Sequence record: MK327936.1 | Length of the DNA: 64,000 nt | DNA from: Escherichia phage vB_EcoM_G2540 | Direction: 5' to 3' (one strand) | Shown here: piece by piece, positions 10,230-40,290 of the stretch | Layout of the letters: every line of letters begins with the position of its first letter | Numbering within the stretch: the stretch's first letter is position 1 | Program-made: the position numbers and the translations under genes | Notes under the pieces: generated by a model | Seen by the model: only the letters and a program-made list of their open reading frames with translations | Databases searched by the model: none | What the model was told of the DNA's origin: nothing

Positions 10230-10259
10230 ATAATACCACGGTTTGAACTTGTTGTAAAC
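10230..10259 (-). promoter_or_regulatory. T4-type early promoter
   Basis: Minus strand GTTTACA-17 nt-TATTAT with A/T-rich TTTTTCACAAAGTT upstream. Confidence 0.6.
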
Positions 10260-10340
10260 AACTTTGTGAAAAATATTTCAGGGAATGATAAGAAAGGAAC
10301 GATAGCTTAGAATGGTAATATACAGAATGTAAGAAAGAAA

Positions 10341-10357
10341 GGCCCAGAGGGCCCATC
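10341..10357 (-). terminator. Putative terminator after nrdH
   Basis: GGCCC..GGGCC hairpin followed by TTTCTTTCTT on minus strand. Confidence 0.4.
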
Positions 10358-10681
10358 TTAGTCTTCTATGATATCTCTATCATATCCAAGTGAAATGAGA
10401 GTTTCTTTGAAGTGTTTAATGTTCTTTTGTCTGGAATCATTAATGAAAATGACTGGATAACGAATGTTAAGAGATGTGAATCCAGCGCGTTTAGCAAGAG
10501 ATACAATCAGTTGACGATCATACTCAATCTTACCATTATTAGTAAGAACTTTATAAAAAGTAAAAGGAACATTGAGCTCCTTTAGAAGTTTTGTAACTGA
10601 TTGACATCCAGGACAACGACCTACTTCATCTGGAATTCCATAGACTTCAATCTTATTCTTTAAGTTCGAGTTTTGTTCCAC
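10358..10681 (-). CDS. nrdH: Glutaredoxin-like protein NrdH, probable GTG start
   Basis: CPGC redox motif in VYGIPDEVGRCPGCQS; AAGGAA Shine-Dalgarno 9 nt upstream of in-frame GTG at 10681; the longer ORF-track form overlaps the upstream gene. Confidence 0.6.
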   Translation of the reverse strand: MEQNSNLKNKIEVYGIPDEVGRCPGCQSVTKLLKELNVPFTFYKVLTNNGKIEYDRQLIVSLAKRAGFTSLNIRYPVIFINDSRQKNIKHFKETLISLGYDRDIIED

Positions 10682-10964
10682 GAGAAATAATTCCTTGGTA
10701 AGCCCAATAAGGAGGATTAACAGAATCCTCACCAGAGTTTTCTTCAGGAAAATAAACCTGGATAACGAAGCCGGATTCATCAAAGGTAAAATAAACCGTA
10801 GGCAGTTCACCTAACAAATCGGCACGAGCGTTGATTTCGTCGAGGTCTTGTTCACGTCCAGCCCAGAAGCTTGGGTTCAGACTACATTCATAGAAATAAT
10901 AGTCATTACCGAACATATCAAAACCATTCCAACTCTCTACTACATACCGCTCAAAACTAATCAT
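10653..10964 (-). CDS. Hypothetical protein
   Basis: 103-aa ORF. Confidence 0.4.
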   Translation of the reverse strand: MISFERYVVESWNGFDMFGNDYYFYECSLNPSFWAGREQDLDEINARADLLGELPTVYFTFDESGFVIQVYFPEENSGEDSVNPPYWAYQGIISRGTKLELKE

Positions 10965-10966
10965 AA

Positions 10967-11182
10967 TTAATCCTTTTTATCAAGAACCGCATTCAGCTTG
11001 TTAGTAATTTTATCCAGACGCTCATTGAACTCACTAGAAGATAAGCCCTTTTCTGGAGAAATTAAACTAATCACGAAAAATACAACAATAAAAGGAATAA
11101 GAAAAATAGCTCCAACCGCCATAAACAGAAAGAACGTTACAGTTGTAAGAAAATCAGCTAAACCTTTACGAAATTTATACAT
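10967..11182 (-). CDS. Small membrane protein
   Basis: 71 aa with a long hydrophobic stretch FLTTVTFFLFMAVGAIFLIPFIVVFFVISLI. Confidence 0.4.
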   Translation of the reverse strand: MYKFRKGLADFLTTVTFFLFMAVGAIFLIPFIVVFFVISLISPEKGLSSSEFNERLDKITNKLNAVLDKKD

Positions 11183-11297
11183 ATTTTACCCTTAATTGAT
11201 TAACCAAGCATTGATAAGCACTAAACTATATTGCGAATAAAATTCTGGACCAAAATGAAAAATCATATCATTTATAGTGTCCATAATATAATTCAAT

Positions 11298-11768
11298 TTA
11301 ATCATGTTTCCACACCCCATCGGTATTTGACCAAAGTCGCTGATTATCTGATCCTCGCCACAGCTTTTTAGTCGGAAGATTTTTCTCATACTTCCCATCA
11401 ATAATAACATCAACATATTTAAGCATTTCTAGTTGTTTAATATCTTCAAACTTATATCCTGTCCACAACCAAATGCTTTTATTGGGATAAAGATTTTTTA
11501 CTGTTTGAACCACAGAGTGAATCACGTCTCTGTTATCAGGATAAAGAGGGTCACCTCCGGTTATAGTTAATCCTTCTATATAATCATTATTCAAACATTC
11601 AATTAATTGTTCTAGTGTTTCACCAGTGAATGGAATACCATTTCTAGCATTCCATGTTGATTTATTATAACACCCTTCGCATTTATGCAAACAACCTGTA
11701 ACGAAAAGAACGACCCTGCATCCAGGGCCATTCACAAAATCGCAAGGATAAAATCTATCATAATTCAT
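11298..11768 (-). CDS. nrdG: Anaerobic ribonucleotide reductase activating protein (radical SAM)
   Basis: 156 aa; Cys cluster CLHKCEGCYN; adjacent to nrdD; size matches T4 NrdG. Confidence 0.9.
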   Translation of the reverse strand: MNYDRFYPCDFVNGPGCRVVLFVTGCLHKCEGCYNKSTWNARNGIPFTGETLEQLIECLNNDYIEGLTITGGDPLYPDNRDVIHSVVQTVKNLYPNKSIWLWTGYKFEDIKQLEMLKYVDVIIDGKYEKNLPTKKLWRGSDNQRLWSNTDGVWKHD

Positions 11769-13582
11769 TGGTGTTTAACCCTATGCATGATTTCTTTATT
11801 TTTACCGAGATTAAATCCGCGTTCGTTCGGATTTCCCAAATAACCACATGTTCTTCTTATTGTGTTCATCTTTTTAGGATCAGTTTCTCCACAAATAGAA
11901 CAAACAAATCCGTTTTCAGTAGGAGTCATTTCATGGGTACTTCCACATGTAAAACATTTATCTACTGGCATATTAACACCAAAATAATCTAAATGTTGTG
12001 CAGCATAATCCCATACGGCCTCAAGGCCTTTCAAGTTATTTTTCATATCAGGAAGTTCAACATAAGAAATGTGACCACCTGTCGCAATGAAATGATATGG
12101 CGCTTCACGAGAAATCTTTTCAAACGGAGTAATATTTTCTTCTACTGAAACGTGGAAACTGTTAGTGTACCAGCCTTTATCGGTAACATCTTTTACACTT
12201 CCATATTTTTCTGTATCAAGTTTACAGAAGCGATAACAAAGGTTTTCAGCAGGAGTAGAATACAAACTAAAAGCAAACTCAGTTCTTTCAGTCCACTGTT
12301 TAAGACGAGCATTCATTTTAGTTAAAATTTCTCGTCCAATATCACGACCGACAAGAATATTCAATTCGTGAATACCAATGTATCCTAGAGACACTGAACT
12401 TCTACCATTTTTAAATAACTCAATTATATCGTCATCAGGTTTAAGACGAACCCCGAATGCACCTTCTTGGTAAAGAATAGGAGCAACAGTCGCTTTAACT
12501 CCTTTTAAGGAACTAATTCTACACATCAATGCTTCAAAACATAAATCCATTCGTTCATTGAACAATTCAACAAATTTCTGTTCATTGAATTGTGTTCCAA
12601 TATAAGAATCTAACGCGATACGAGGAAGATTCAGTGTTACAACACCGAGATTATTACGTCCATCAAGAATTTCATTACCAGTCGAATCTTTCCATACGCT
12701 CAAGAAACTACGGCAACCCATTGGAGAAACAGGAATAGATGAGCCGGTGATAGCTTTATTGTTCTTAGCTGAAATAATATCAGGATACATTCTTTTGCTT
12801 GCGCACTCTAGAGCAAGCTGTTTAATATCATAGTTCGGATCGTCTTTATAAAGATTAACACCTTCTTCAACAAACATAACAAGCTTAGGGAAAATAGGAG
12901 TTATCCCATCACGACCAAGACCTTTAATACGATTTTTCAGAATTGCTTTCTGAATCATTCGTTCAGTCCAGTCAGTTCCTGTACCAAATGTAATTGTTAC
13001 AAAAGGTGTTTGTCCGTTTGAACTAAAGAGAGTATTTACTTCATATTCATAAGCTTGGAATGCATCGTATACATCTTTTTCTGTTTTAGATTGAGCATAA
13101 TTCAACGCATCAGCGATTTGCCATTTTTCTGCATCCTCAATATGTTTTGCATAGGTGCGTTTAACATAAGGAGAAAGTACTTTATCTACATTAGCAAAAG
13201 TCGTTCCGCCGTATTGATGGGAAGCAACCTGTGCAGTAATTTGTGCCATAATTGCAGTAGCAACACCGATTGATTTAGGAGTTTCAATCTGTGCATTACC
13301 AAGCTTAAATCCATTCTCAAGCATTCCTTTTAAATCTACTAAACAACAATTAGTAAATGGAAGAGCAGGGGAATAATCAATATCGTGGAAATGAATAATT
13401 CCGCTTTCATGCGCTTTCATAATAAAAGACGGGACCATATTTTTGGCAATGTGTTTAGACACAATACCAGCCATAAGGTCCCGTTGAGTTGGAAAAACAC
13501 GAGAATCTTTATTAGCATTCTCGTTTAAAAGGTCTTTATTAGTTTTATGAATCAATCCTTCAATTTCTTTTTCAATTGTCAT
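11765..13582 (-). CDS. nrdD: Anaerobic ribonucleoside-triphosphate reductase, uninterrupted (no intron)
   Basis: Continuous 605-aa ORF; C-terminal glycyl-radical region RRTCGYLG and Cys cluster CFTCGS...CSICG. Confidence 0.9.
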   Translation of the reverse strand: MTIEKEIEGLIHKTNKDLLNENANKDSRVFPTQRDLMAGIVSKHIAKNMVPSFIMKAHESGIIHFHDIDYSPALPFTNCCLVDLKGMLENGFKLGNAQIETPKSIGVATAIMAQITAQVASHQYGGTTFANVDKVLSPYVKRTYAKHIEDAEKWQIADALNYAQSKTEKDVYDAFQAYEYEVNTLFSSNGQTPFVTITFGTGTDWTERMIQKAILKNRIKGLGRDGITPIFPKLVMFVEEGVNLYKDDPNYDIKQLALECASKRMYPDIISAKNNKAITGSSIPVSPMGCRSFLSVWKDSTGNEILDGRNNLGVVTLNLPRIALDSYIGTQFNEQKFVELFNERMDLCFEALMCRISSLKGVKATVAPILYQEGAFGVRLKPDDDIIELFKNGRSSVSLGYIGIHELNILVGRDIGREILTKMNARLKQWTERTEFAFSLYSTPAENLCYRFCKLDTEKYGSVKDVTDKGWYTNSFHVSVEENITPFEKISREAPYHFIATGGHISYVELPDMKNNLKGLEAVWDYAAQHLDYFGVNMPVDKCFTCGSTHEMTPTENGFVCSICGETDPKKMNTIRRTCGYLGNPNERGFNLGKNKEIMHRVKHQ

Positions 13583-17297: not shown

Positions 17298-18329
17298 TTA
17301 CTTAATTAACTGTAAAGCTTGTTCAAGACGATCAAGACGATTAACGGATTCTTCCCAAATCTTTTTAGCCTGCTCATATTCTTTCTGCGCTTTATTAGAA
17401 ATTTCTAGAACTTCTTTATAAGCTTTTTCTAGTGCAATAACTTCTGGACGAATTTCTACCGGTTCAGGAGAATCATCAAGATTATCCATTAGTTCCTCAA
17501 GGGTAGTTTCTTCTTTAGGAGTATTCACAATTTCATCACATTTTTGTTGGTAAATTTCTTTATCAGTCGGTGAGTACGCACACTTTACTTCACGAAGACT
17601 AATTATAATTTTATATCCTTCCCATCCACACATATTTTTGAAAGGATATGTATGAATACTTTTTACAGTTTCCATACAGCCCAAAGCCGTCTCTAATTGA
17701 TGAGTTATAGTGCTAGCAATTGAGAAAAATTTATTAATGTTCTTTTGGTTAGTTTCTGGTGTAAAAAATCCATAATTCACAAAAATAGCTACTTTATTTT
17801 TATCAAGTTCATATTCTTTTATGATAATCATATCAGAAGCCAAAGGATGAATTTGACGATAATCGCCATAGCATAATTTAGAAGCTGATTTTAGAATTTG
17901 CTTCTTAAAAAGTCTGAAATTACTAATCCAACGACGAGTAAAAATATTCTCAGGGTCTTCTTTATTATTAAGATGATAAGAATTAACATCACCGAACCAA
18001 TTATATCCTACTACATCTTTGGTTCGTTTAATTTCTTTCCCAAAATTACCAAGAATATCCCGATTAACCAAATATGAAAGAAGACGAGACTCTTTAAAGG
18101 TTTTCTTGATAACATCTTTATCTACACGGCTAGAAATTTTACGAATTTCATGAATAAATTTAGTAGAAGAAACAATACTTGCATCAACACTATTGAGCCA
18201 TTGATTGATAATAGAAAGAACGATATTTTGACCAAACATCGGTATAGCTTTATCATCAATAACGCTATTGAATGATTTGATATATTCGTTACGAGTCATA
18301 TTAATCTCCTCATTAGAAAGTAAGAACAT
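17298..18329 (-). CDS. Uncharacterised protein with C-terminal coiled coil (tandem set member 2)
   Basis: 343 aa; C-terminal ALEKAYKEVLEISNKAQKEYEQAKKIWEESVNRLDRLEQALQLIK. Confidence 0.5.
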   Translation of the reverse strand: MFLLSNEEINMTRNEYIKSFNSVIDDKAIPMFGQNIVLSIINQWLNSVDASIVSSTKFIHEIRKISSRVDKDVIKKTFKESRLLSYLVNRDILGNFGKEIKRTKDVVGYNWFGDVNSYHLNNKEDPENIFTRRWISNFRLFKKQILKSASKLCYGDYRQIHPLASDMIIIKEYELDKNKVAIFVNYGFFTPETNQKNINKFFSIASTITHQLETALGCMETVKSIHTYPFKNMCGWEGYKIIISLREVKCAYSPTDKEIYQQKCDEIVNTPKEETTLEELMDNLDDSPEPVEIRPEVIALEKAYKEVLEISNKAQKEYEQAKKIWEESVNRLDRLEQALQLIK

Positions 18330-18356
18330 TATACCACATCCTTGTGGCGAAGTAAA

Positions 18357-19382
18357 CTAGTTTAGTGCATTTAGTGCATTGTTCAGTTTAGAACGTTGCT
18401 TTGTCAGATTTTGAACCCTTGACTGAGCTTGTTCTAACACCTTTTCAGCTTCTAGCACTTCATTGGTCGCTTTAACGAGTTCATCATCTACTGCCTTAAG
18501 AGACTTCTCAATCGCGCCAGCGTGCCATTTTTCTACAGGTTTAAGACTCGGATTTTCAACAGGAAGAAAATTCACTTTATTGAATTTCCATGCATCATTA
18601 TTACCTGAACTATACATCCAAAATTTAGAATCGTTTGATGAGCAATTGGATAAATTTAAATTTAAGTTATCTTGCACTTCTTGCTTTTTCTCTTGCGGGA
18701 CTTCGTCCTTTCTCAAAAAATCGTATTTAAATGAAACAATCATATCAAGTTCATATGTTGTCGTATCTAACTTAAATCGTTCAAAACGAGGTAAAATCTT
18801 AGATTGAACAGCAGCAACAACATCCATATACTTAAATGCTTCTGTCAACTGTGATTTAAGGCATTCACAAATTGAAAGAGAATTTTTTGTATTAGGTTTA
18901 AAGCTAATTCGTGCAGTTCTGTTATTTTCTTTTAATGGTCTTACTTCCATCTGAAGAGTATAACCATCAAATTTCAGATTCTTTAAGTTAATATCAGAAC
19001 CTTTTAATCGACTAGCCGTCGACAAAATTTGCTTTAATTGTTTACGGAATAGAGCAATAAATCTCCACTCAATACGATAATGATTTGGATTAAAAAATCC
19101 TGTTGATAAATCAACCTTACTCTGACCAACGCCTTGAACAAATAGAGGATTTTTATAATCAATAGTTTTACAGAAATCGGTGAGCTGCTCACGAGCCGTC
19201 ATTTGTGTAATATACCCCGCTTTACTAAAATGACGTAACCATTCACTGCTATTCATATATTTAAAGTGAATATCACGATTAACTTTATCAGGGTCTAAAT
19301 TATTTTGGCACAAAAATGTCATAACATCACGAGTATAACTGGCATTACGAACCATATCTTCAATTTGAGAACGAGTTTTCAT
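18357..19382 (-). CDS. Uncharacterised protein with C-terminal coiled coil (tandem set member 3)
   Basis: 341 aa; starts MKTR; C-terminal LEAEKVLEQAQSRVQNLTKQRSKLNNALNALN. Confidence 0.5.
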   Translation of the reverse strand: MKTRSQIEDMVRNASYTRDVMTFLCQNNLDPDKVNRDIHFKYMNSSEWLRHFSKAGYITQMTAREQLTDFCKTIDYKNPLFVQGVGQSKVDLSTGFFNPNHYRIEWRFIALFRKQLKQILSTASRLKGSDINLKNLKFDGYTLQMEVRPLKENNRTARISFKPNTKNSLSICECLKSQLTEAFKYMDVVAAVQSKILPRFERFKLDTTTYELDMIVSFKYDFLRKDEVPQEKKQEVQDNLNLNLSNCSSNDSKFWMYSSGNNDAWKFNKVNFLPVENPSLKPVEKWHAGAIEKSLKAVDDELVKATNEVLEAEKVLEQAQSRVQNLTKQRSKLNNALNALN

Positions 19383-20749: not shown

Positions 20750-21277
20750 TTATGCGAGTACCGTCTTTAACCGTTCTTCAAACTTCCGAAGAGTATTCTG
20801 GCGTTCAGCTCTTTGCTTTTTGTAAGTTTCAATACGCTCTGAAATGAGAGTGTATCGTTCATTTACTGATTCTTTCATAAAATCAGGAATTTCACGAGAA
20901 GCTTTAATCTCGTCAAATTTATCAATAACTGCTTGCTCTTCAGCAATTAAGTTATCATACATCAAAATATCTTTCTTGATGAACTCAATATCTTCTTGAG
21001 TTACACGAGATAATTTAGATGCTTTATCCTTTTTGTACTGTTCGTTAGTATCACGAGACCAGTGTAATGTACGATTTTTATTCGTATTCTTGTAAATTTC
21101 TACAATACCAATCTCATCGATAATAACGATCCAATTCCAACGAGATTTGTAAATTTGTCCTCCGTCAACCGTGATTTCACCTCCGATTGAGATGTCATTA
21201 AAGAACTTGCTTTGTGCTTCAGATTTAAATTTACCATCGTTGTAATTTACCAGGTTGAAAATATCTTTAGCGTTCAT
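20750..21277 (-). CDS. Hypothetical protein
   Basis: 175-aa ORF; GGAGG Shine-Dalgarno; early promoter upstream. Confidence 0.45.
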   Translation of the reverse strand: MNAKDIFNLVNYNDGKFKSEAQSKFFNDISIGGEITVDGGQIYKSRWNWIVIIDEIGIVEIYKNTNKNRTLHWSRDTNEQYKKDKASKLSRVTQEDIEFIKKDILMYDNLIAEEQAVIDKFDEIKASREIPDFMKESVNERYTLISERIETYKKQRAERQNTLRKFEERLKTVLA

Positions 21278-21305
21278 TTTGTGTTCCTCCGTAGTTGATA
21301 GTTGT

Positions 21306-21335
21306 ATAGTACCACAGAGGAACAGTCTTGTAAAC
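21306..21335 (-). promoter_or_regulatory. T4-type early promoter
   Basis: GTTTACA-17-TACTAT followed by conserved ACAACTATCAACTAC leader. Confidence 0.6.
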
Positions 21336-21337
21336 CA

Positions 21338-21652
21338 CTAAAAGAAACTTCTTTCACAATTTTTTCCACTGAACCATGCGCTTACCGCTTTCTTAGTCTC
21401 AGGAGCAGTGTTATCCATAAACCATTCAAAGGCAGCCTTTTTATGATTCTGGAGGGCTTCTCGGGCTTTAATCTGCTCACGGTCTATTAACACTAACATA
21501 TGAGCCTTTCTTGTCACCATGGGCTTCTTATGATTTTTTGAATACTCCCAGTCATTTGTCCATCGCATTGTCGTTGCGAACTTAAATACTGCTTCTTTAA
21601 TTTTAGTTTCGTAAATTTCACGAGCCTTTGAGTATAACATCATTACCTCCAT
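21338..21652 (-). CDS. Hypothetical protein
   Basis: 104-aa ORF. Confidence 0.4.
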   Translation of the reverse strand: MEVMMLYSKAREIYETKIKEAVFKFATTMRWTNDWEYSKNHKKPMVTRKAHMLVLIDREQIKAREALQNHKKAAFEWFMDNTAPETKKAVSAWFSGKNCERSFF

Positions 21653-21742: not shown

Positions 21743-22729
21743 TTATTTCAGAAGAGTAACCTCAGCGATTTCTTCCCAACCGTTTTTGTCGGTCATAATA
21801 AAGTCAGCAAGATAAAGAGCAGTACGCAGTGAAACATTGCGTAAACGATTAACATTAACTTTCATCCATGATAATGCTTTATAAGTTTCTTCATCAGAAA
21901 GACCGCGCTTTTGCATCATGTCGGTTGAAAGAATAACATCTTCAACCCTGACCATAATTTCTTCATTAGTGTGAACACCCAAATCTAAATAAACTGAGCG
22001 GGACACTAATGCTTGTAAATGTGGAGCAAGTTTAGTACCGCGGTCTAATTCGCGGTCAATGTCAACGTTTGTGATAAAAACAATCGTTCCTTTAAATTCA
22101 AACTCACGGTCAATGCCTTTTTCTTCTAAGTAAGAAGATGCAGTGCTCCAGCAGACTTTACGGGTCTCTCCAGTGTCCAGAGCAGCTTTTAGAAGATTAA
22201 GAATGTCCATATCAGAGAAAACATCCACATCATCAATCAAAAGGACAGAGTTCTCTTCACGATTATACCAAAGCTGCTCATAAAGACCAATACCAGAGAT
22301 TTTACCATTAATGCTTTTATATTCAATGTATCCAATATCGTTTGCTTTATTTAAAGCTTTATCTAAAGAATACGTTTTACCAATACCTGCTGCGCCAGAG
22401 ATAATTAATGAACGAATATTTCCATTAATAATACCATTCGTCATCATTCCCATAACATTAAATCTTTTATTAATGCGGGTTTTCATATCTTCATATGATT
22501 CTTTAACTTCTTCAACTTTTACACCATCATATGAAATATCTGATTTGTAAACCCAAACACCACGACGTTTACCGTCAATTTCAACAAAAACTTTACCATC
22601 TCCTTGTGCATCTACCGGAGCATTATCTGGGAACCATTCGCCTAAGAGCTCAAAAGTTCCAGAGATTTCTTTACCGAAGTAGATACCCTTATTGATAGTT
22701 ACAGTTTTCATTTTATTCTCCAATCTCAC
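21743..22729 (-). CDS. P-loop NTPase (AAA-like) protein
   Basis: 328 aa; Walker A GAAGIGKT, Walker B LLIDDVD. Confidence 0.6.
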   Translation of the reverse strand: MRLENKMKTVTINKGIYFGKEISGTFELLGEWFPDNAPVDAQGDGKVFVEIDGKRRGVWVYKSDISYDGVKVEEVKESYEDMKTRINKRFNVMGMMTNGIINGNIRSLIISGAAGIGKTYSLDKALNKANDIGYIEYKSINGKISGIGLYEQLWYNREENSVLLIDDVDVFSDMDILNLLKAALDTGETRKVCWSTASSYLEEKGIDREFEFKGTIVFITNVDIDRELDRGTKLAPHLQALVSRSVYLDLGVHTNEEIMVRVEDVILSTDMMQKRGLSDEETYKALSWMKVNVNRLRNVSLRTALYLADFIMTDKNGWEEIAEVTLLK

Positions 22730-22747
22730 ATTTGTTTTGATAGGGTA

Positions 22748-22777
22748 ATAGTATCACACTACTACCCTTTTGTAAAC
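22748..22777 (-). promoter_or_regulatory. T4-type early promoter
   Basis: GTTTACA-17-TACTAT on minus strand upstream of gene at 22729. Confidence 0.55.
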
Positions 22778-22780
22778 AAT

Positions 22781-23044
22781 TTATTTTAACGTTCGCCAAA
22801 TTTTTACTGCTTCACGGCGAGATACTTCTACAGCTCCAAGTTCTACAGCTTTTTGGCGTCGGCGAGCGTGTAAGTCATAATGTTTAATGCGTTTATCTTG
22901 AAACCAAGAACGTTTCATTCCTATTGCTTCTGCCATTTCATGAAGCTCTTCAATATCTCCATCAGTGAACATATGACAATTTTTAGTTGGATGACCGCGA
23001 AGTTTCCATCCATGATTCATTAAAACATCTACGTAAACTGTCAT
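22781..23044 (-). CDS. Hypothetical small basic protein
   Basis: 87-aa ORF. Confidence 0.4.
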   Translation of the reverse strand: MTVYVDVLMNHGWKLRGHPTKNCHMFTDGDIEELHEMAEAIGMKRSWFQDKRIKHYDLHARRRQKAVELGAVEVSRREAVKIWRTLK

Positions 23045-23193
23045 TGATTCTTCTCCAAATAAGTTTCGATAATTTTCTGAGCGAGATAAACTGCATTATC
23101 TTCAGTTGCATCTTCTAAGAAACTTTCAAAACACTCTGAAATTTCTTCTGTATCAATCAACTTTTTTACTTCAATTGGTGTAATTTTCATTTT
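23041..23193 (-). CDS. Hypothetical small protein (start trimmed to internal Met after the promoter)
   Basis: ORF-track form 23041..23361 would span promoter 23228..23257; MKITPIEVKK start follows it. Confidence 0.35.
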   Translation of the reverse strand, partial: KMKITPIEVKKLIDTEEISECFESFLEDATEDNAVYLAQKIIETYLEKNQ

Positions 23194-23227
23194 GTTTTTC
23201 CGTTTAAGTGTTTGTTTTGATAGTTGT

Positions 23228-23257
23228 ATAGTACCATAAAGCTTTATGCTTGTAAAC
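23228..23257 (-). promoter_or_regulatory. T4-type early promoter
   Basis: TTTTTCACAAAATTGTTTACA-17-TACTAT-ACAACTATCAA. Confidence 0.6.
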
Positions 23258-23281
23258 AATTTTGTGAAAAATTTTTGAAAT

Positions 23282-23306
23282 AAAAAAAGGGAGCCCGAAG
23301 GCTCCC
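23282..23306 (-). terminator. Rho-independent terminator
   Basis: Minus strand GGGAGCC-TTCG-GGCTCCC followed by TTTTTTT. Confidence 0.7.
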
Positions 23307-23308
23307 TA

Positions 23309-25878: not shown

Positions 25879-26023
25879 AATTACATACTCCTTTGAATAA
25901 TATCAATAATGTTGTTCACCAGATTATAAGTAAACATTGGGTAATTATATTGAATCATCACATACACAACAAACAAAACTTTCATTCTCTTCTCCTTGAC
26001 CGTTGACAAGATTACTATACCAT

Positions 26024-26053
26024 AACCTTGTCAACTTGTAAACCATTAAATGA
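26024..26053 (-). promoter_or_regulatory. T4-type early promoter
   Basis: GTTTACA-17-TATAGT on minus strand. Confidence 0.55.
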
Positions 26054-26208
26054 CGTTTTCAATAAAATTCTGAAGCTTTGTGTGAGCATCAACCATAATT
26101 TTCATTTCTTCCTTTGCGAAAGCTGTACCTCTTTCCCGAGCAGAATACTCATAGTCAGAAACTGCATTAGCATATTCTTCAATTAGCTTCATTAAAAACA
26201 TTTGCTTT

Positions 26209-26644: not shown

Positions 26645-26841
26645 GCCATATGAGTTGCAGCTTCATCACACATATCATAACGTTTCTTAAGAAGTTCTAC
26701 AAGTTCTTCACTAGTAACTTCATCCATGTCGACGAAAAAATCACCATTAATGATGACGTAGATATTTCCTTCTTGATTGAGTGCTTCAATTTTCATGATG
26801 TTCTCCTCTTTATCCGATAGTTGTATAGTACCACAGCTCAA
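26608..26841 (-). CDS. Hypothetical small protein
   Basis: 77-aa ORF with GAGGAG Shine-Dalgarno directly after an early promoter. Confidence 0.4.
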
Positions 26842-26854
26842 ACGGAAAGTAAAC
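26825..26854 (-). promoter_or_regulatory. T4-type early promoter
   Basis: GTTTACT-17-TACTAT-ACAACTATC then GAGGAG and ATG 26841. Confidence 0.55.
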
Positions 26855-26864
26855 CGGCAAAATG

Positions 26865-26886
26865 AAAAAAGTCTCCCGAAGGAGAC
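26865..26886 (-). terminator. Rho-independent terminator
   Basis: Minus strand GTCTCC-TTCG-GGAGAC followed by TTTTTT. Confidence 0.7.
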
Positions 26887-26891
26887 TAATG

Positions 26892-30541: not shown

Positions 30542-31003
30542 TCATTGAGTTTTAATTACTGCTTTAGAAGCCTTTCCTGGTAAACGACGACTGTTGATAA
30601 TTGCCATCCTGCATTGAAGTGACGGGTTTTTGAACTTCTCATTAGGCTTACAAACCGTAAATCCAAGCCAAAGATTTCCATCTGTGATTTCTAAACGTCC
30701 AGGACGATATTCAACCCCATCAATAAAATCCTCGTCAATGTCAGGACGCGGAGGCATACTCAGGAATTCATTAACTTCTAAAACATGGTCTTTTATTTTA
30801 TGGAATAATTCAAAAACATATGTCTCATCAATCTCCCGTTGAATTGCACGATCAAGAAGATGCTGAGAATATTTTAGATGAAACGATGAGACTCCTGCTG
30901 CTTTTGATGCCTCACGAATCTCATTGTTAATTTGACGAAACTCCGACTCAAAGTGACGACGAAGCTTATTTCGACGGATAAAAACTTCTGTATTGATAGT
31001 CAT
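30542..31003 (-). CDS. regB: Endoribonuclease RegB
   Basis: 153 aa; size and position match T4 RegB; early promoter upstream. Confidence 0.8.
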   Translation of the reverse strand: MTINTEVFIRRNKLRRHFESEFRQINNEIREASKAAGVSSFHLKYSQHLLDRAIQREIDETYVFELFHKIKDHVLEVNEFLSMPPRPDIDEDFIDGVEYRPGRLEITDGNLWLGFTVCKPNEKFKNPSLQCRMAIINSRRLPGKASKAVIKTQ

Positions 31004-31030
31004 GTTATTCTCCTCTTAACTGATAGAAAA

Positions 31031-31061
31031 ATTATACCACAGTCAAGAGGAAAAGTAAACA
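31031..31061 (-). promoter_or_regulatory. T4-type early promoter upstream of regB
   Basis: GTTTACT-18-TATAAT on minus strand. Confidence 0.5.
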
Positions 31062-31062
31062 G

Positions 31063-31650
31063 TTATTCTTTAAATCTAATCAATTTATTCATAGACTTTG
31101 AAACTTCTGCACGAACCTCATGTAAGTTTTTAAGCTGTTCAAGACGCTGCTCATAGTAAGCAATTTCATCTTCTTCGAGACAGTCCTGTGAATCTTCTTT
31201 AAGATAACGTGCATAGTCCTGAAAAGCTTTACGGACTACTTCCTGGAAGTCATCAAGACTTTGAATTTTCTTAGGAGCGGCAGATACACGACGAGGTGCA
31301 GTATAATACTCATAACCAAACCCTGCACTTAATTGAGCCATTAGTATTTTTCCTCTGGTTGGAATATCGCTGATGTCAGGAACTTCAGTATCTTTTATAC
31401 TAAACCCACGTTTTAAGCATTCCGTTATAATGTCTGATTGACGCTTTCGCAAAAATTCTAACTTATCGTAAAAGAACGTAACATGACCAGAGCCTAAAAT
31501 AAACTCGGAAGATATTTTAAAATCTTTAACCCGCTTACCATTTGCCACATGTTTACGAACTATACCAAAAACACGCGGCAATTCACGATACTCAGCCATA
31601 AGATGTTGGTCGGTCAGTTCAGAAACAAGTGTTAAATTGATACGAGTCAT
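31063..31650 (-). CDS. denV: Endonuclease V (pyrimidine-dimer glycosylase) homolog with extended divergent C-terminus
   Basis: [12 protein letters not shown]...[13 protein letters not shown] matches recalled T4 EndoV for about 100 aa; then diverges and continues to 195 aa. Confidence 0.7.
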
Positions 31651-31687
31651 AATTTCCTCCAAGTAGTTGATGAATGTATAGTATCAA

Positions 31688-31708
31688 AGTCCTTGGAGGA
31701 AGTAAACA

Positions 31709-31717
<9 letters not shown>
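31688..31717 (-). promoter_or_regulatory. T4-type early promoter upstream of denV
   Basis: GTTTACT-17-TACTAT then ACATTCATCAACTAC leader and GGAGGA. Confidence 0.55.
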
Positions 31718-32511
<794 letters not shown>

Positions 32512-35391: not shown

Positions 35392-35434
35392 AGTATTTCC
35401 TTAGGTTAATTAAGATTTAAAATCCACGAGAGTA

Positions 35435-35611
35435 TTATACTCCGGATAGTTTGTAAACTATTTCAACATCGCCTTTTGCTGCTTTATAACCTTCAGCCCA
35501 AGATACAACCGAGTTTTTATCTGAAGATTCAAATTCTGGCATTGGGCTTTCGCCAATGTTCACGCAGTATGTTTCTTCATTTTCGTCAAACCAAATAATT
35601 AAAGTAGTCAT
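35435..35611 (-). CDS. Small ORF below the ORF-track cutoff
   Basis: My translation gives MTTLIIWFDENEETYCVNIGESPMPEF..., 58 aa, ATG at 35611. Confidence 0.3.
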   Translation of the reverse strand: MTTLIIWFDENEETYCVNIGESPMPEFESSDKNSVVSWAEGYKAAKGDVEIVYKLSGV

Positions 35612-35680
35612 TTATTTCTCCGTTTTCTGTATTTGTTTTGATAAGTCTATAATAACACCGTCCTTGGTATTTGTACACAA

Positions 35681-35956
35681 TTATTTCATATTATTGAAAT
35701 ATTCTTCTGCGATTTCATCGTTATCATGGTAAACTTTAGAAGACAGTTTAACATAACCTTCAGCAGTGAACATGTTAATCACAACCTTTACAGTATACCA
35801 CTGACCGTCTTCATTACCCATTACTGCATAAGTTTCAAACATCGGATGGTCAGGACCGATAACTTTAATATCATTCACTGTACGACCAAAATCTTCTGAA
35901 ACACATTTCATAAAGAAGTTGAACAGTTCGCCGTAATTATCCATTTCATTCTCCAA
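35681..35956 (-). CDS. Hypothetical small protein
   Basis: 91-aa ORF directly after early promoter 35988..36017. Confidence 0.4.
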   Translation of the reverse strand: MENEMDNYGELFNFFMKCVSEDFGRTVNDIKVIGPDHPMFETYAVMGNEDGQWYTVKVVINMFTAEGYVKLSSKVYHDNDEIAEEYFNNMK

Positions 35957-35987
35957 GTTGTTTTCTGTATCAGTAGTTGATAGTTGT

Positions 35988-36017
35988 ATAGTACCATGGA
36001 AGAACAGGGATGTAAAC
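35988..36017 (-). promoter_or_regulatory. T4-type early promoter
   Basis: TTTTTTCACAAAACTGTTTACA-17-TACTAT-ACAACTATCAACTAC. Confidence 0.6.
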
Positions 36018-36150
36018 AGTTTTGTGAAAAAATTTTAAAAAGTTTTGGGGAATTCTAGGGCAGGGAGGGGCAATTAAAGGATAGGATAATATATTATAAA
36101 GGGTAGAAACTAAATGATGCCTAGAGAGGCCCGGAAAGGCCTAGATACCA

Positions 36151-36180
36151 AAAAGCCCCAACCTTTCGGTCGGGGCTAAG
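36151..36180 (-). terminator. Rho-independent terminator (copy 1 of identical 30-bp element)
   Basis: Minus strand AGCCCCGACC-GAAA-GGTTGGGGCT followed by TTTT; downstream of internal-protein gene. Confidence 0.7.
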
Positions 36181-36702: not shown

Positions 36703-36705
36703 CTA

Positions 36706-36735
36706 AAAAGCCCCAACCTTTCGGTCGGGGCTAAG
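36706..36735 (-). terminator. Rho-independent terminator (copy 2) ending the tRNA operon
   Basis: 30 bp identical to 36151..36180; hairpin plus T-run on minus strand. Confidence 0.7.
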
Positions 36736-36784: not shown

Positions 36785-36940
36785 CGAAACGCCGGGATTC
36801 GAACCCGGTTATTAAGTAGTTGACGCTACTCAATATTTTTAAAAGGCCATATCTCGACCATATCCGAACGTTCCGTCAAAAACGCTACTCGGCTTACGGC
36901 AAAGATATTTCCTCGAATCGATAATTCGGTGCGCCGTTTC
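36785..36940 (-). ncRNA. Putative stable tRNA-like RNA (T4 species-1/2-type)
   Basis: T-arm-like CCGGG-TTCGAAT-CCCGG and a 6-bp terminal pairing but no complete cloverleaf; within the tRNA operon before the terminator. Confidence 0.3.
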
Positions 36941-36944
36941 TGCT

Positions 36945-37043
36945 GTGATAGTAAAGAATCAGAACACAGTAAAACTGTGGGAGAAACTATACTCCAGGGA
37001 ACATCAGTCCGACGACTTACCGGTAGCGACCCGGTTTCTTGTC
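36945..37043 (-). ncRNA. Putative second stable RNA between tRNA-Arg and the tRNA-like RNA
   Basis: Non-coding interval inside tRNA operon; T4 encodes two stable RNAs here; boundaries approximate. Confidence 0.25.
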
Positions 37044-37119
37044 TGGTCGAGGCAGTAGGGATCGAACCTACGACCCAGGACTTAGAAGGTCCTTGCTCTT
37101 CCTTCTGAGCTATGCCCCG
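37044..37119 (-). tRNA. tRNA-Arg (anticodon TCT), CCA encoded
   Basis: Manual fold: acceptor CGGGGCA/TGCCTCG, D-arm GCTC..GAGC, anticodon loop CTTCTAA, T-arm GTAGG-TTCGATC-CCTAC. Confidence 0.75.
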
Positions 37120-37122
37120 TAA

Positions 37123-37788
37123 TTAAAATTTCATTTTTCGACCTTTAAACCATCCTTCTGGAATTGGGTCAGTTTTCTTAATAAGTTTAGAAACTTTTTC
37201 ATCTAATGAATGAATCCACATCATACCAAATTGGGAATTCTTTTCGCCTTGTTGGTGTTTATTTCTGGCGTGAGATTCTTTCATTTTATTAATAGTTTCA
37301 AGAGTATGGGTCTTACCCAAGAAAGATTTAGTATTTAAAAATTTCTCTCTATACTTAGGATTATCCCAAAGCTGTTTAAACCTTTCTGAACCCATTTTAC
37401 GATATTTTTCTTTAAGGTCTGGGTCGTTCTCAAATCTGGTTTTAAAAGCGGCAGCTCCTTTTAAGGAAGCTTCTTTCTTTTTATCCAAATATTCTTTAGT
37501 GTTTAAATGGTCCCAACCACCTTCACCACCTAATTTCAAATTATAAACATCAGGGCGCTTTAAAAACTCTTCAGTCACAATATTCTTTTCTGACTCAAAC
37601 ATAGAGGTTTTATCGTCAAAGAACTCTAATATTTCTTTAGAAAAATTTTCTATACCATACTTATCTTGGGCTCTTTTTAATAATTTACCAGAACCCATAT
37701 ATCCATCATCTAAATTTTCGGTAGAATGCACACCAATATAAATTTTATTATTAATTTTATTTGTTATTTTATAAGTGTAATGGAACAT
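37123..37788 (-). CDS. segB: GIY-YIG homing endonuclease SegB
   Basis: 221 aa; YTYKITNKINNKIYIGVHS GIY-YIG motif; embedded in tRNA cluster as in T4. Confidence 0.8.
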   Translation of the reverse strand: MFHYTYKITNKINNKIYIGVHSTENLDDGYMGSGKLLKRAQDKYGIENFSKEILEFFDDKTSMFESEKNIVTEEFLKRPDVYNLKLGGEGGWDHLNTKEYLDKKKEASLKGAAAFKTRFENDPDLKEKYRKMGSERFKQLWDNPKYREKFLNTKSFLGKTHTLETINKMKESHARNKHQQGEKNSQFGMMWIHSLDEKVSKLIKKTDPIPEGWFKGRKMKF

Positions 37789-37829
37789 AAATATCTCCTA
37801 TTTCTAAGAGTATTTATGTTCCCAAAATA

Positions 37830-37901
37830 TGGCCCTGGGTGGAATTGAACCACCATCTGGCGATTATGAGTCGCTTGCTTGAACCTTCCAGCTACAGGGC
37901 C
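37830..37901 (-). tRNA. tRNA with CAT anticodon (T4 tRNA-Ile-type; Ile via lysidine, or Met)
   Basis: Manual fold: acceptor GGCCCTG/CAGGGCC, anticodon loop CTCATAA, T-arm GGTGG-TTCAATT-CCACC. Confidence 0.75.
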
Positions 37902-37907
37902 TTGATA

Positions 37908-37980
37908 TGCTGATTGACGGAATCGAACCGCCGACATCCTCATTACAAGTGAGTTGCTCTACCTACTGAGCTAAATCAGC
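37908..37980 (-). tRNA. tRNA-Thr (TGT)
   Basis: Manual fold: acceptor GCTGATT/AATCAGC, D-arm GCTC-AGTAGGTA-GAGC, anticodon loop CTTGTAA, T-arm GGCGG-TTCGATT-CCGTC. Confidence 0.8.
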
Positions 37981-37987
37981 GAAATTA

Positions 37988-38074
37988 CGGAGGCGATAGG
38001 ATTTGAACCTATGAGTCGCCGGAGCGACTGCCGGTTTTCAAGACCGGTGCATTAAACCACTCTGCCACGCCTCC
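37988..38074 (-). tRNA. tRNA-Ser (TGA), long variable arm
   Basis: Manual fold: acceptor GGAGGCG/CGCCTCC, anticodon loop CTTGAAA, long variable arm, T-arm ATAGG-TTCAAAT-CCTAT. Confidence 0.8.
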
Positions 38075-38076
38075 AG

Positions 38077-38150
38077 TCTCCATACAAGGATTTGAACCTT
38101 GGACCTCCTGATCCCAAATCAGGCGCTCTACCAAACTGAGCTACACGGAG
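38077..38150 (-). tRNA. tRNA-Pro (TGG)
   Basis: Manual fold: D-arm GCTC-AGTTTGGTA-GAGC, anticodon stem CCTGA/TCAGG loop TTTGGGA, T-arm CAAGG-TTCAAAT-CCTTG. Confidence 0.8.
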
Positions 38151-38162
38151 TAAATTAAATTT

Positions 38163-38234
<72 letters not shown>

Positions 38235-38240
38235 AAACTT

Positions 38241-38327
38241 TGGTACGAGAAGTGGGACTCGAACCCACAAGGAAATCATTCCGCAGCATTTTAAGTGCTG
38301 TGCCTTTACCAATTTGACCATTCTCGC
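38241..38327 (-). tRNA. tRNA-Leu (TAA), long variable arm, CCA encoded
   Basis: Manual fold: acceptor GCGAGAA/TTCTCGT, anticodon stem CAGCA/TGCTG loop CTTAAAA, T-arm GTGGG-TTCGAGT-CCCAC. Confidence 0.8.
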
Positions 38328-38328
38328 G

Positions 38329-38401
38329 CTGGGAATAAAGGACTCGAACCTTTGCATCTAGCAGTCAAAGTGCTATGCCTTACCAACTTGGCTAATTCCC
38401 A
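38329..38401 (-). tRNA. tRNA-Gln (TTG)
   Basis: Manual fold: acceptor TGGGAAT/ATTCCCA, anticodon stem TAGCA/TGCTA loop CTTTGAC, T-arm AAAGG-TTCGAGT-CCTTT. Confidence 0.8.
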
Positions 38402-38487
38402 ATTATTAACAAAGGCTCTCAAACAAGAACCCTTGATGATAGAGGGTATTAATCAGTGCGGTATGAGTTAATAATAACAAATAATTC

Positions 38488-39003
38488 TTAAAGCAAATTA
38501 AACATTTTAACAGTCGGCAAAACAATTTCTTTTTCTATATAAGAGTATTTAACACTCTCAACTACACGCAGAAAATCATAATCATAATATTCAGAAGCAC
38601 TGCCTAAAATATTAATAAGTCCTTCAAACACTTTATTACCATTCACAAAGAATAAGTCAAATACACGTTCTTCATCTTCTTCAGATTTATTACCAAGGTC
38701 AACTTCTATATCAAAGACCTTTTTAATGAATTCTGGATAAAGCTGGTCTGAGAACAGTCCTTCAACCAAGTATTCATAAATAAAAAGCGATTGCTCGCTG
38801 AACAAGCCATTACCACAATAACGTTCAACTTTTGTGCTAGAATGTCTGCTTTTAAACTTCTTTAAAAGATATTGGAATTGTAAGATTTCATGCTCTTCTA
38901 CACCAAACAGTGTTTTAGTTTTATAGTTGTCACCATCATTTTCCCAGGTAGTGACATCAATTACGTAACCCTGCGGAATTGTAGTACCTAAACAAATATT
39001 CAT
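38488..39003 (-). CDS. Hypothetical protein
   Basis: 171-aa ORF upstream of the tRNA cluster. Confidence 0.45.
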   Translation of the reverse strand: MNICLGTTIPQGYVIDVTTWENDGDNYKTKTLFGVEEHEILQFQYLLKKFKSRHSSTKVERYCGNGLFSEQSLFIYEYLVEGLFSDQLYPEFIKKVFDIEVDLGNKSEEDEERVFDLFFVNGNKVFEGLINILGSASEYYDYDFLRVVESVKYSYIEKEIVLPTVKMFNLL

Positions 39004-39293
39004 TTACTCACCATATTAATGTAAGTATATTCAATACATTCAAGACCCAAAGGATTCTTGAAAATATCATATTCAAGAGGACCTTTTTCTGTTTCAATAA
39101 AGAAATCAAAATTTACTGTATTAAATTTACGGTCTTCCTTCAATAATTTAACTTGAGAAGATGAACGGTCAACATAAACCTTTTCAACTTCAAAACATGT
39201 TAAAACGCCATAATCATCAATCAAGGCTTTAGCCGCGTCTTGATCATATTTATATCCATTTTCAATGGACGATACTTTAGCATAAAGAATCAT
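39000..39293 (-). CDS. Hypothetical protein
   Basis: 97-aa ORF; ATGA overlap with downstream gene. Confidence 0.4.
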   Translation of the reverse strand: MILYAKVSSIENGYKYDQDAAKALIDDYGVLTCFEVEKVYVDRSSSQVKLLKEDRKFNTVNFDFFIETEKGPLEYDIFKNPLGLECIEYTYINMVSK

Positions 39294-39296
39294 TAT

Positions 39297-39716
39297 TTAC
39301 CCTTCATCAACAATAGTATGAGTGTGGGCATTTACAATTTGCCACCAATCAAAGCGATTAGAACCATACATTGGGTTGTTCTCATTTTCTTTGATAATGT
39401 CACGGAGTTCATCTTCGGTAGCGGCTTTCGCGATTAAATCAGCATATCCACCGCGAGGATAATAATTATCACCTGCAAAAAGTAAAAAGTTCGGTTTAAT
39501 ATTATTGAACTCTTCAAGAGTAATAACTTTTCCTGTCGGTTGAACAATCTCTACATATTTATATCCTAATTTTTGAGCAGCATCTACTGCTTCAAGCAAA
39601 GTATCATGAGCCCATCCAATTTGACAACCTGGCTTTTCAGATGGATTAGCCTGATAATCCGCGTACACTTTATACATTCTATTCACCTTTAGAAATTTTA
39701 TCCATAACGATAGCAA
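39297..39716 (-). CDS. Hypothetical protein (start may be internal Met at 39674)
   Basis: 139-aa ORF track; N-terminus overlaps the upstream small ORF. Confidence 0.4.
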   Translation of the reverse strand: MLSLWIKFLKVNRMYKVYADYQANPSEKPGCQIGWAHDTLLEAVDAAQKLGYKYVEIVQPTGKVITLEEFNNIKPNFLLFAGDNYYPRGGYADLIAKAATEDELRDIIKENENNPMYGSNRFDWWQIVNAHTHTIVDEG

Positions 39717-39864
39717 TTAAACCAATTAAAAATGCTACTACAAGTGAAAAAACATTTTCTGCTGTAGTTAATAATCCGCATATAAATCCAACAAACATTG
39801 AAAAACTAAAAGCGGAAGCAGAAATTGCAATAGCAACATTTCGAATTAATTCACAGCGTTTCAT
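39679..39864 (-). CDS. Small membrane protein
   Basis: 61 aa; two hydrophobic segments; GAGGAG Shine-Dalgarno after early promoter. Confidence 0.4.
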   Translation of the reverse strand: MKRCELIRNVAIAISASAFSFSMFVGFICGLLTTAENVFSLVVAFLIGLIAIVMDKISKGE

Positions 39865-39892
39865 TTTATTCTCCTCAGTAGTTGATAGGGTA

Positions 39893-39922
39893 ATAGTATC
39901 ACAACTAAAACCCTATGTAAAC
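39893..39922 (-). promoter_or_regulatory. T4-type early promoter
   Basis: TTTTTCACAAAGTTGTTTACA-17-TACTAT. Confidence 0.6.
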
Positions 39923-39940
39923 AACTTTGTGAAAAATTTA

Positions 39941-40225
39941 TTACAAAAGATTTTTTGCAATAATTTTAAGCTGAGCTACTGAAATATGCTTGGCTTTAAA
40001 CAAAGCAGTTTCTTCAGCAGGGGAGATAACGATTGTAGCACCATCTTTCTTAGCGGACCATCCATCACCCAGGTAAACAGTACCTTTGACTTCTTCGCCA
40101 TCAACCAGGCTAATCATCGGTTTACCTTCACGTCCTTTGTTTGCTTTAATAACTTCAGAAGTAAGGGTCGCTTCAGTCAAAGTAGAAGCGTTAGTCGTTG
40201 AAGTGAATTCTTGATAAGTTTTCAT
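39941..40225 (-). CDS. ipI: Internal protein I (IPI-like; capsid-packaged anti-restriction protein)
   Basis: 94 aa; starts MKTYQEF (IP capsid-targeting peptide); own early promoter; T4 ipI position before 57B. Confidence 0.65.
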   Translation of the reverse strand: MKTYQEFTSTTNASTLTEATLTSEVIKANKGREGKPMISLVDGEEVKGTVYLGDGWSAKKDGATIVISPAEETALFKAKHISVAQLKIIAKNLL

Positions 40226-40260
40226 TTTATTTTCCTAAATTAATAAATGTGTTGATGGAG

Positions 40261-40290
40261 ATAATATCACTTCTCCATCGTCGTGTAAAC
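40261..40290 (-). promoter_or_regulatory. T4-type early promoter upstream of ipI
   Basis: TTTCACAAAGTTGTTTACA-17-TATTAT. Confidence 0.6.

Follow-up and report, generated by a model that had tools for sequence, protein, structure and literature searches.

The 64,000-nucleotide stretch of Escherichia phage vB_EcoM_G2540 analysed here (sequence record MK327936.1; called the window, to whose positions all coordinates refer) carries fourteen sites that very probably are the sigma-70-dependent early promoters of a T4-like phage. The motif family as such is already known, as the T4 early promoters, also called promoter-early stem-loop (PeSL) cassettes. The only less familiar feature of these promoters, which a preliminary description of the sequence had not noted, is that the spacer between the -35 and -10 elements can pair with the leader of its own promoter. 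We suggest, at a probability of roughly 0.4, that the early-promoter spacer doubles as an arm directed against the Shine–Dalgarno (SD) sequence or the start site and co-evolves with the leader, giving a genome-wide interlock between promoter and ribosome-binding site (RBS).

Fourteen promoters of the T4 early type

The preliminary description had counted at least eleven minus-strand sites sharing GTTTAC(A/T), a 17-nt spacer and TA(C/T)TAT, and this core stands, with fourteen sites found. GTTTACW-N17-TAYTAT has nine exact matches in the window, all on the minus strand, against 0.01 expected, and a relaxed scan with inspection added five variants: 31060, 26043 and 18357, with TATAAT or TATAGT at -10, and 35678 (GTGTAC) and 41780 (GTTTAA), with one mismatch each at -35 (sites are named by the higher coordinate of the -35 hexamer). 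Thirteen lie within the range of the preliminary description and 41780 just beyond it. The -35 hexamer is exactly GTTTAC at 12 of the 14 sites. The hexamers are separated by 18 nt throughout, which is 17 nt in the sigma-70 register (TTTACA-17-TAnnAT), and TG at -15/-14, T-12, A-11 and T-7 are invariant. Every site is followed, 25-43 nt 3' of the -10 hexamer, by an SD and an ATG opening an open reading frame (ORF), so that all fourteen present the same composite of A/T-rich region, early promoter, SD and ATG of the next gene. A generic sigma-70 scan was uninformative in this A/T-rich genome (94 matches against 78 expected); it flagged the motif sites, with the TG present.

Upstream of the -35 hexamer, information peaks at -40, -45, -48 and -57, and A or T is the majority base in most columns. 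The upstream block previously thought to be shared, TTTTTCACAAAGTT, does adjoin GTTTAC at five sites (10259, 39922, 23257, 36017 and 40290, with 0, 0, 1, 2 and 2 mismatches), but as a free pattern it is not enriched in the window (35 matches against 28 expected), and the remaining sites have a generically A/T-rich upstream region without it.

The sites, with GTTTAC at -35 unless stated otherwise and stems labelled by the classes defined in the next section, are as follows.

41723-41802 (-): promoter of gene 1 (dNMP kinase); -35 GTTTAA at 41775-41780, -10 TATAAT, ATG 41725; inferred +1 at 41744; spacer positions -22 to -13 pair with the ATG region, +16 to +25; identical at T4 75429.
40223-40312 (-): promoter of an ipI-family internal-protein gene; -35 at 40285-40290, -10 TATTAT, ATG 40225; class B stem ATGGAG/CTCCAT around -10; SD GGAAAATAAAA.
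39862-39944 (-): promoter of a trna.4 homologue; exact upstream block TTTTTCACAAAGTT, -35 at 39917-39922, -10 TACTAT, ATG 39864; leader TACCCTATCAACTAC; SD GGAGAATAAAA, an exact RegB consensus; stem ATAGGGT/ACCCTAT around -10.
35942-36039 (-): promoter of an e.8 homologue; -35 at 36012-36017, -10 TACTAT, exact ACAACTATCAACTAC, ATG 35944; weak pairing between spacer (TTCTTCCA) and SD (TGGAGAA); terminator about 137 nt upstream (36154-36177).
35609-35700 (-): variant promoter of a 58-residue ORF; -35 GTGTAC, -10 TATTAT, TATCAA at -1 to +5; no spacer-leader stem.
31648-31729 (-): promoter of denV (ORF truncated and fused); -35 at 31702-31707, -10 TACTAT, ATG 31650; class A stem between the 5' arm TTCCTCCAAG (starting at -30) and the SD-containing CTTGGAGGAA, -17.8 kcal/mol.
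31001-31082 (-): promoter of regB; -35 at 31055-31060, -10 TATAAT, ATG 31003; stem of 18 pairs between spacer 31037-31054 and 31008-31026, which includes the SD GAGGAG, -22.4 kcal/mol.
26794-26876 (-): promoter of a mobD.5 homologue; -35 at 26849-26854, -10 TACTAT, leader beginning ACAACTATC, ATG 26796; preceded by an intrinsic terminator (26870-26887); weak spacer-SD pairing.
25983-26065 (-): promoter of a mobD.2 homologue (34 residues); -35 at 26038-26043, -10 TATAGT, ATG 25985; stem of 14 pairs, GTTGACAAGGTTA/TAATCTTGTCAAC, around -10, -18.3 kcal/mol.
23188-23279 (-): promoter at 23257, equal to T4 PnrdC.10 through ACAACTATCAA and driving an inserted 49-residue ORF; terminator directly upstream (23288-23307); the spacer-internal palindrome GCATAAAGCTTTATG is its sole structure.
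22709-22799 (-): promoter of nrdC.10; -35 at 22772-22777, -10 TACTAT, ATG 22711; resembles the T4 146143 promoter; leader TACCCTATCAA, SD GGAGAATAAAA; stem GGGTAGTA/TACTATTACCC around -10.
21275-21357 (-): promoter of nrdC.8; -35 at 21330-21335, -10 TACTAT, exact ACAACTATCAACTAC, ATG 21277; stem of 13 pairs between spacer 21312-21324 and 21282-21294, which includes the SD GGAGG, -20.8 kcal/mol.
18297-18379 (-): promoter of nrdC.4; -35 at 18352-18357, -10 TATAAT, ATG 18299; only a spacer-internal hairpin, CCACAaggaTGTGG.
10197-10281 (-): promoter of a 55.6 homologue; exact upstream block, -35 at 10254-10259, -10 TATTAT, ATG 10199; a short fold shows no spacer-leader stem.

Twelve of the fourteen precede the same gene as in T4 (NC_000866), with identical or near-identical sequence: 55.6, nrdC.4, nrdC.8, nrdC.10, mobD.5, mobD.2, regB, denV, e.8, trna.4, ipI and gene 1. 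The 38-76 kb segment of T4 contains the same motif 14 times (0.18 expected), and 126 kb of T4, when scanned, yielded 32 such promoters. With an A/T-rich UP-like region, a GTTTAC -35 element, the optimal 17-bp sigma-70 spacing, a TGn extended -10 and TAnnAT, they would be used by host RNA polymerase right after infection. The UP/GTTTAC/TGn/-10 class of T4 early promoters is reportedly that of Liebig and Ruger (1989) and Miller et al. (2003).

The T4 early promoter (Pe) class is covered by Hinton 2010 (PMC2988021) and Nolan et al. 2006 (PMC1524935); reviews describe its members as "uber" UP/-35/TGn/-10 promoters with additional consensus regions, and the published consensus puts GTTTAC at -36 to -31 (Nolan et al. 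2006, PMC1524935). We took +1 in the window from this T4 numbering: the T4 GenBank and RefSeq records have no promoter features annotated, and we found no genome-wide T4 start-site map in the literature. The hexamer at -35 and its position, the spacing, the TGn, the -10 element and the A/T-rich upstream region are all as in Pe promoters, so that as positional orthologues fitting the published consensus the sites bear out the earlier reading as early promoters. There is no essential difference; 35678, and 22777 where it is now placed, have no T4 counterpart at the locus, and the denV promoter is of the Mosigvirus type.

A related element at 35429-35458 (-), upstream of an e.6 homologue, reads GTTTAC-N18-TACTCT without the TG; a degraded counterpart of the T4 Pe.6 promoter (T4 69967), it can be likened to the '1/2 PeSLs' of phage PST.

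Complementarity between spacers and their own leaders

Although the 18-nt spacers differ in sequence from promoter to promoter, each is complementary to its own leader or SD; among promoters with no terminator ahead of them, this holds for most. We folded the region from -35 to ATG+3 and, as a control, swapped leaders among promoters. The fourteen window promoters have a native mean of -13.4 kcal/mol against -9.07 +/- 0.73 kcal/mol after swapping, and none of 20,000 permutations was as low. For the 32 T4 promoters, the values are -14.0 and -9.34 +/- 0.47 kcal/mol (z = -10), and for 14 of these the promoter's own leader folds best of all 32. The same test gave z = -4.6 in Mosigvirus (n = 15) and z = -4.2 in Karamvirus (n = 11). 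When each spacer was shuffled, z averaged about -2.6 in every one of the four sets. Gene starts with such a promoter fold at -13.9 kcal/mol and those without at -7.75 kcal/mol (p = 1e-4). Anti-SD tetramers occur in 9 of 27 T4 spacers, compared with a background of 5.3% (p = 7e-6).

The structures fall into three classes. Class A, in which the 3' arm is the SD (the ATG in gene 1), comprises regB, denV and nrdC.8 and, more weakly, e.8 and mobD.5. Class B, in which the stem surrounds the -10 hexamer and the 3' arm lies at about -9 to +6, comprises ipI, trna.4, mobD.2 and nrdC.10. Class C has a spacer-internal hairpin (nrdC.4 and 23257) or no stem.

Comparison between genera indicates that these predicted stems are kept by compensatory change. 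The regB comparison, which drew on INPHARED records (IMG/VR gave 11 regB loci), finds the spacer-SD stem in seven lineages despite different arm sequences: CCTCTTGACTG/CAGTTAAGAGG in the T4 type, CTCCTCTAGTTG/CAACTAGAGGAG in Mosigvirus and TTTCTCCTCTTTATG/CATAAAGAGGAGAAA in Gelderlandvirus, with two-tier stems in Karamvirus and Jiaodavirus. When the seven spacers and seven leaders are exchanged in all combinations, the diagonal is minimal in every row (-20.3 kcal/mol with the own leader, -11.2 kcal/mol with the others). Over 22 pairs of orthologous promoters from different genera, which represent about nine genes, the average cost of a leader swap is 12.4 kcal/mol, and all swaps but one (21 of 22) are destabilising. 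The T4 ipI promoter (PipI, 73939) likewise has a stem that differs in sequence from that of the window ipI promoter and is equally complementary.

In this otherwise T4-type genome, denV has a promoter and leader of the Mosigvirus type. The spacer differs at 3 positions from that of PhAPEC2 and at 12 from that of T4, which shows that a whole promoter-leader unit has been exchanged between genera. Exchanging the leader with that of T4 PdenV costs 17.1 kcal/mol. Behind this promoter, a 195-residue ORF at 31063-31650 (-) opens with ~100 N-terminal residues of DenV (endonuclease V), which are fused in frame to the C-terminus of vs.3, the gene upstream of regB. At the junction, near 31346, ~2.2 kb present in T4 and vB_EcoM_G9062 is missing, namely the 3' part of denV and vs.8 to vs.4. 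The junction was spanned in one piece by none of 655 matching phage records; candidate explanations are a natural deletion, a laboratory mutant and a join made in assembly.

Possible role of the stems

The 5' arm lies at -30 to -13 and is therefore absent from the promoter's own transcript and present on RNA initiated upstream. According to reviews, early transcripts routinely run into downstream genes. The stem would thus form only on RNA from upstream promoters, where it would mask the SD or otherwise attenuate or insulate expression, and the first gene would be translated chiefly from its own immediate-early transcript. The folding models agree with such a role: the SD has a predicted accessibility of ~0.5 on the transcript of its own promoter and of ~0.3 on read-through RNA (T4, p = 5e-5; Mosigvirus, p = 0.002; the window, p = 0.02; Karamvirus, not significant). 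At 31707, 31060 and 21335, the predicted probability that the SD is unpaired drops from 0.2-0.5 to 0.0 in upstream-initiated RNA; masking is predicted to be weaker at 36017 and 26854, and at 41780 it is the ATG that is predicted to be paired.

The excess stability of the fold is -0.5 kcal/mol (n = 13) where an intrinsic terminator lies within ~100 nt upstream and -5.9 kcal/mol (n = 40) where none does (p = 0.001), and an independent scan confirmed these terminators. Since specific pairing is missing where a terminator precedes the promoter, the stem appears to be needed only where upstream transcription arrives. We conclude from the models that the spacer-leader stem probably masks the SD, or attenuates, on read-through RNA. 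The interlock proposed above goes further: the RBS would be closed on read-through RNA and only transcripts born at that promoter would be translated, so that the stem would substitute for an upstream terminator and confine the first gene of the cassette to the immediate-early burst.

Several observations weigh against this proposal. Of the 14 window promoters, only 4-6 have the SD itself in the stem; in four the stem surrounds the -10 element and does not reach the SD, and another four form no stem between spacer and leader. Phylogenetically, the 22 orthologue pairs do not count as independent. Lacking a U-tract, the embedded stems are not canonical terminators. The excess of sense over antisense folding is -3.8 kcal/mol against a genomic baseline of -1.5 to -2.0 (p = 0.06); as this is barely above baseline, it does not distinguish structure at the RNA level from structure at the DNA level, and strand asymmetry of G-U pairs, used as a discriminator between the two, gave no clear signal against the genomic baseline.

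The strongest competitor is the published PeSL interpretation, in which the stems, whose placement varies with respect to the promoter, attenuate or terminate upstream transcription and are not translational masks; we regard it as possible, though somewhat less likely than the interlock. Stem-loops of RB49 and phi1 PeSLs have been described between -35 and -10 or overlapping -10, and one of them cut downstream lacZ expression as strongly as rrnB T1. The mutual exclusion of embedded stems and upstream canonical terminators would suit an attenuator, and the class B stems do not touch the SD. However, A-rich sequence rather than a U-tract follows the T4-type embedded stems, anti-SD tetramers are specifically enriched in the spacers, and the most stable stems have the SD as their 3' arm, an arrangement conserved across genera.

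That the dyad symmetry acts in the DNA, as a cruciform or single-strand hairpin serving cassette recombination or the opening or shut-off of the promoter, seems to us improbable. The class B stems are centred on -10 and in Mosigvirus are near-perfect palindromes whose sense and antisense folds are equally stable; PeSLs recombine, with a structure-specific protein proposed as a possible partner; and the mechanism of early-promoter shut-off is unexplained in reviews. The class A loops, at 20-30 nt, are nevertheless unfavourable for cruciform extrusion, and the link with upstream terminators points to a role at the RNA level. G-U pairs in the stems would be mismatches in a cruciform, a weak point given the baseline.

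We also considered whether a terminating ribosome could melt the stem and so provide translational coupling, but this seems unlikely: the stop codon upstream is ~8 nt short of the 5' arm, and a ribosome there would be expected to open only 1-2 pairs.

There is precedent for a promoter nested in an RBS-sequestering hairpin. The T4 genes e, soc, 49 and I-TevI have such hairpins with a nested late promoter (TATAAATA) (PMC3014915). As there, a long upstream transcript pairs the SD or AUG, the proximal promoter sits in the 5' part of the structure and its own transcript is open, all of which in the window is predicted. Their nested promoter is late and delays translation until late times, whereas those in the window are sigma-70 early promoters and the predicted effect is to confine translation to immediate-early transcripts. 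The mechanism would therefore be analogous but not of the same class. Reviews report RBS masking only for the late-promoter cases, and we found no description in the literature of pairing between an early-promoter spacer and the SD, although an earlier mention is possible in Miller et al. (2003) or in the primary papers of 1989-1994, which lay outside our coverage.

The conserved block probably marks the transcription start

The preliminary description had also proposed that five or more sites share a 15-mer, ACAACTATCAACTAC, downstream of -10, and had suggested a shared regulatory element in the leader. The 15-mer is exact at only two sites (21291 and 35973) and, allowing up to 3 mismatches, is not enriched in the window (6 matches against 2.6 expected, a number reached in 6 of 100 shuffles). 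A shorter block at fixed register is real. TGnTAnnAT-N5-TATCAA with up to one mismatch has 11 matches against 1.6 expected, and none of 100 shuffles reaches 11. In the column profile of the fourteen sites, T-1 occurs 13 times, A+1, T+2 and A+4 11 times each, and C+3 and A+5 10 times each; conservation is confined to about -3 to +7, and past about +9 only GGAG-type SDs are conserved. The register of the block is fixed to the -10 element and not to the SD or ATG. The CCTATCAA block also precedes unrelated genes in Mosigvirus and Karamvirus.

With GTTTAC at -36 to -31, +1 is the A of TATCAA, and ACAACT, at -6 to -1, is untranscribed; under the published numbering only ATCAACTAC (+1 to +9) of ACAACTATCAACTAC would be RNA. 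We conclude that what is conserved after -10 is for the most part the start-site block that belongs to this class of promoter, (C)T-1 A+1 T C A A. A preference for NAD capping at +1 was entertained and dropped, since the -3 to +2 context does not appear to fit the published non-canonical initiating nucleotide (NCIN) consensus.

Where the identity runs further (ACAACTATCAACTAC and, in T4, the entire leader as far as GGAGAATAAAATG), it marks sub-families whose promoter/RBS cassettes are nearly identical. Recent duplication of cassettes or gene conversion between them, without selection on the start-site block, is unlikely to account alone for the similarity after -10. The sub-families are indeed near-identical from the UP region to the ATG, and recombination junctions fall within the block, but T-1 A+1 TCAA is found also in promoters with unrelated flanks and spacers and in two other genera, and otherwise identical cassettes carry different spacers. 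Least likely of all is that ACAACTATCAACTAC is a dedicated mRNA-leader element (RNase site or translational operator) of an early-gene regulon: part of it (+1 to +9) would be transcribed, the block recurs at fixed register and some T4 copies are identical over the whole leader to the ATG, but half of the 15-mer lies upstream of +1, the register is kept with -10 while the distance to SD or ATG varies from 25 to 43 nt, the block has no Rfam match, and in these leaders it is the GGAG SD, rather than the block, that RNase is known to target.

Post-transcriptional signals do occur in the leaders, as RegB-type SDs and predicted spacer-leader stems, though not in the block. The RegB endoribonuclease has the consensus GG*AGRAYARAA in early T4 translation-initiation regions. 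Among the fourteen SDs, GGAGRAYARAA is exact at 22711 and 39864 and has one mismatch at 25985, 31003 (regB), 35944 and 40225. These sites are at the SD, 10-28 nt downstream of the block; a predicted RNase site is therefore present, but outside the block. The GGAG and A-rich SDs are of the type cut by the phage RNase RegB, cleavage here being predicted from the consensus. RegB cleavage has been reported for T4 regB, motA and others, and the six promoter-proximal SDs with no more than one mismatch include that of regB itself. RegB is reported to act poorly on the leaders of denV and gene 1.

One further element, TGATATAATAGATCTATGAA at 8468-8487 (-), combines an extended -10 with a near-match to the start-site block but lacks GTTTAC at -35. 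This may be a promoter of the middle type, or a weak one, ahead of the gene 55 region.

Comparison with PeSL cassettes

Modular shuffling of PeSLs has been described by Arbiol et al. 2010 (PMC2839356) and Comeau et al. 2014 (PMC4122927). The published PST/T4 consensus, TTTACW-N17-TAYWAT, is flanked upstream by A/T-rich sequence and has the SD and ATG at its 3' end (PMC4122927); the window sites match it. They are the same composite of A/T-rich region, early promoter, stem-loop, SD and ATG, and they too are concentrated in the hyperplastic region and flank insertions and deletions. Structure accompanies most of them: a spacer-to-leader stem at 10 of 14 sites, a spacer-internal hairpin at 18357 and none at 35678, with terminators directly upstream of 23257 and 26854 and ~137 nt upstream of 36017. 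The stem-loops of RB49 and phi1 also lie within or overlap the promoter, whereas those of T4 and PST are drawn just upstream of it (PMC4122927) and the window stems are mostly embedded in it. Further differences are that the window stems frequently extend to the SD, have no U-tract and show covariation between genera, and that SD masking is absent from the published interpretation. Experimental proof of PeSL attenuation or termination, and of mini-circles formed by recombination, comes from phi1 and RB49 only.

PeSL cassettes would recombine with each other and so carry genes into and out of the hyperplastic region. Relative to T4, two ORFs (the 49-residue ORF and a DUF4031-like ORF; 22709-23279 (-)) are inserted between the PnrdC.10 promoter and nrdC.10. 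The insertion is bounded by the cassettes at 23257 and 22777, the second of which now drives nrdC.10. Its junctions lie right after ACAACTATCAA, within the start-site block, and at TTGGAGAATAAAATG, at the SD. Five T4 promoters share the sequence from ACAACTATCAACTACTGATAC to TTGGAGAATAAAATG and are distinguished mainly by their spacers.

Genomic setting

The part of the window from about 1 to 44 kb is the early "hyperplastic" region from T4 gene 55 to gene 1. Its genes are transcribed from the minus strand, in agreement with composition skew and the annotation of relatives. Identity of the window to Tequatrovirus (T4-like) genomes is 98-99.7%. In a 6-kb piece of the region of the promoters, it reaches 99.7% with Escherichia phage vB_EcoM_G9062 and 95-99% with several hundred genomes of the genus. 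Other parts of the window have their best matches in different T4-like phages; at 28-42.5 kb, database phages cover it piecewise and the region is mosaic with respect to all of them. The genome is thus a mosaic member of Tequatrovirus.

An Rfam scan at gathering thresholds found eight tRNAs and no family matching the leaders or the start-site block. The eight tRNA genes are clustered at 37047-38401 (-), between the e.8 and trna.4 promoters, and correspond to the T4 tRNA region. Two identical intrinsic terminators (AGCCCCGACCGAAAGGTTGGGGCT followed by a T-run), at 36709-36732 and 36154-36177 (-), are 555 bp apart and flank a 157-residue ORF, which looks like a duplicated terminator cassette.

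Implications

The motif finding amounts to the textbook T4 early promoters again, and it confirms that reading the sequence alone can spot them. The stem result, with its statistical and phylogenetic support, appears to be a modest refinement of the PeSL stem-loop architecture. It extends the architecture known from RB49 and phi1 to T4 proper and two further genera, with covariation over many genes, and suggests that early promoters make systematic use of the T4 late-gene device, in which a promoter nested in the hairpin unmasks the RBS. If true, this would help to explain why the tandem strong promoters of the hyperplastic regions do not add up to over-expression and what restricts products such as RegB to a short burst.

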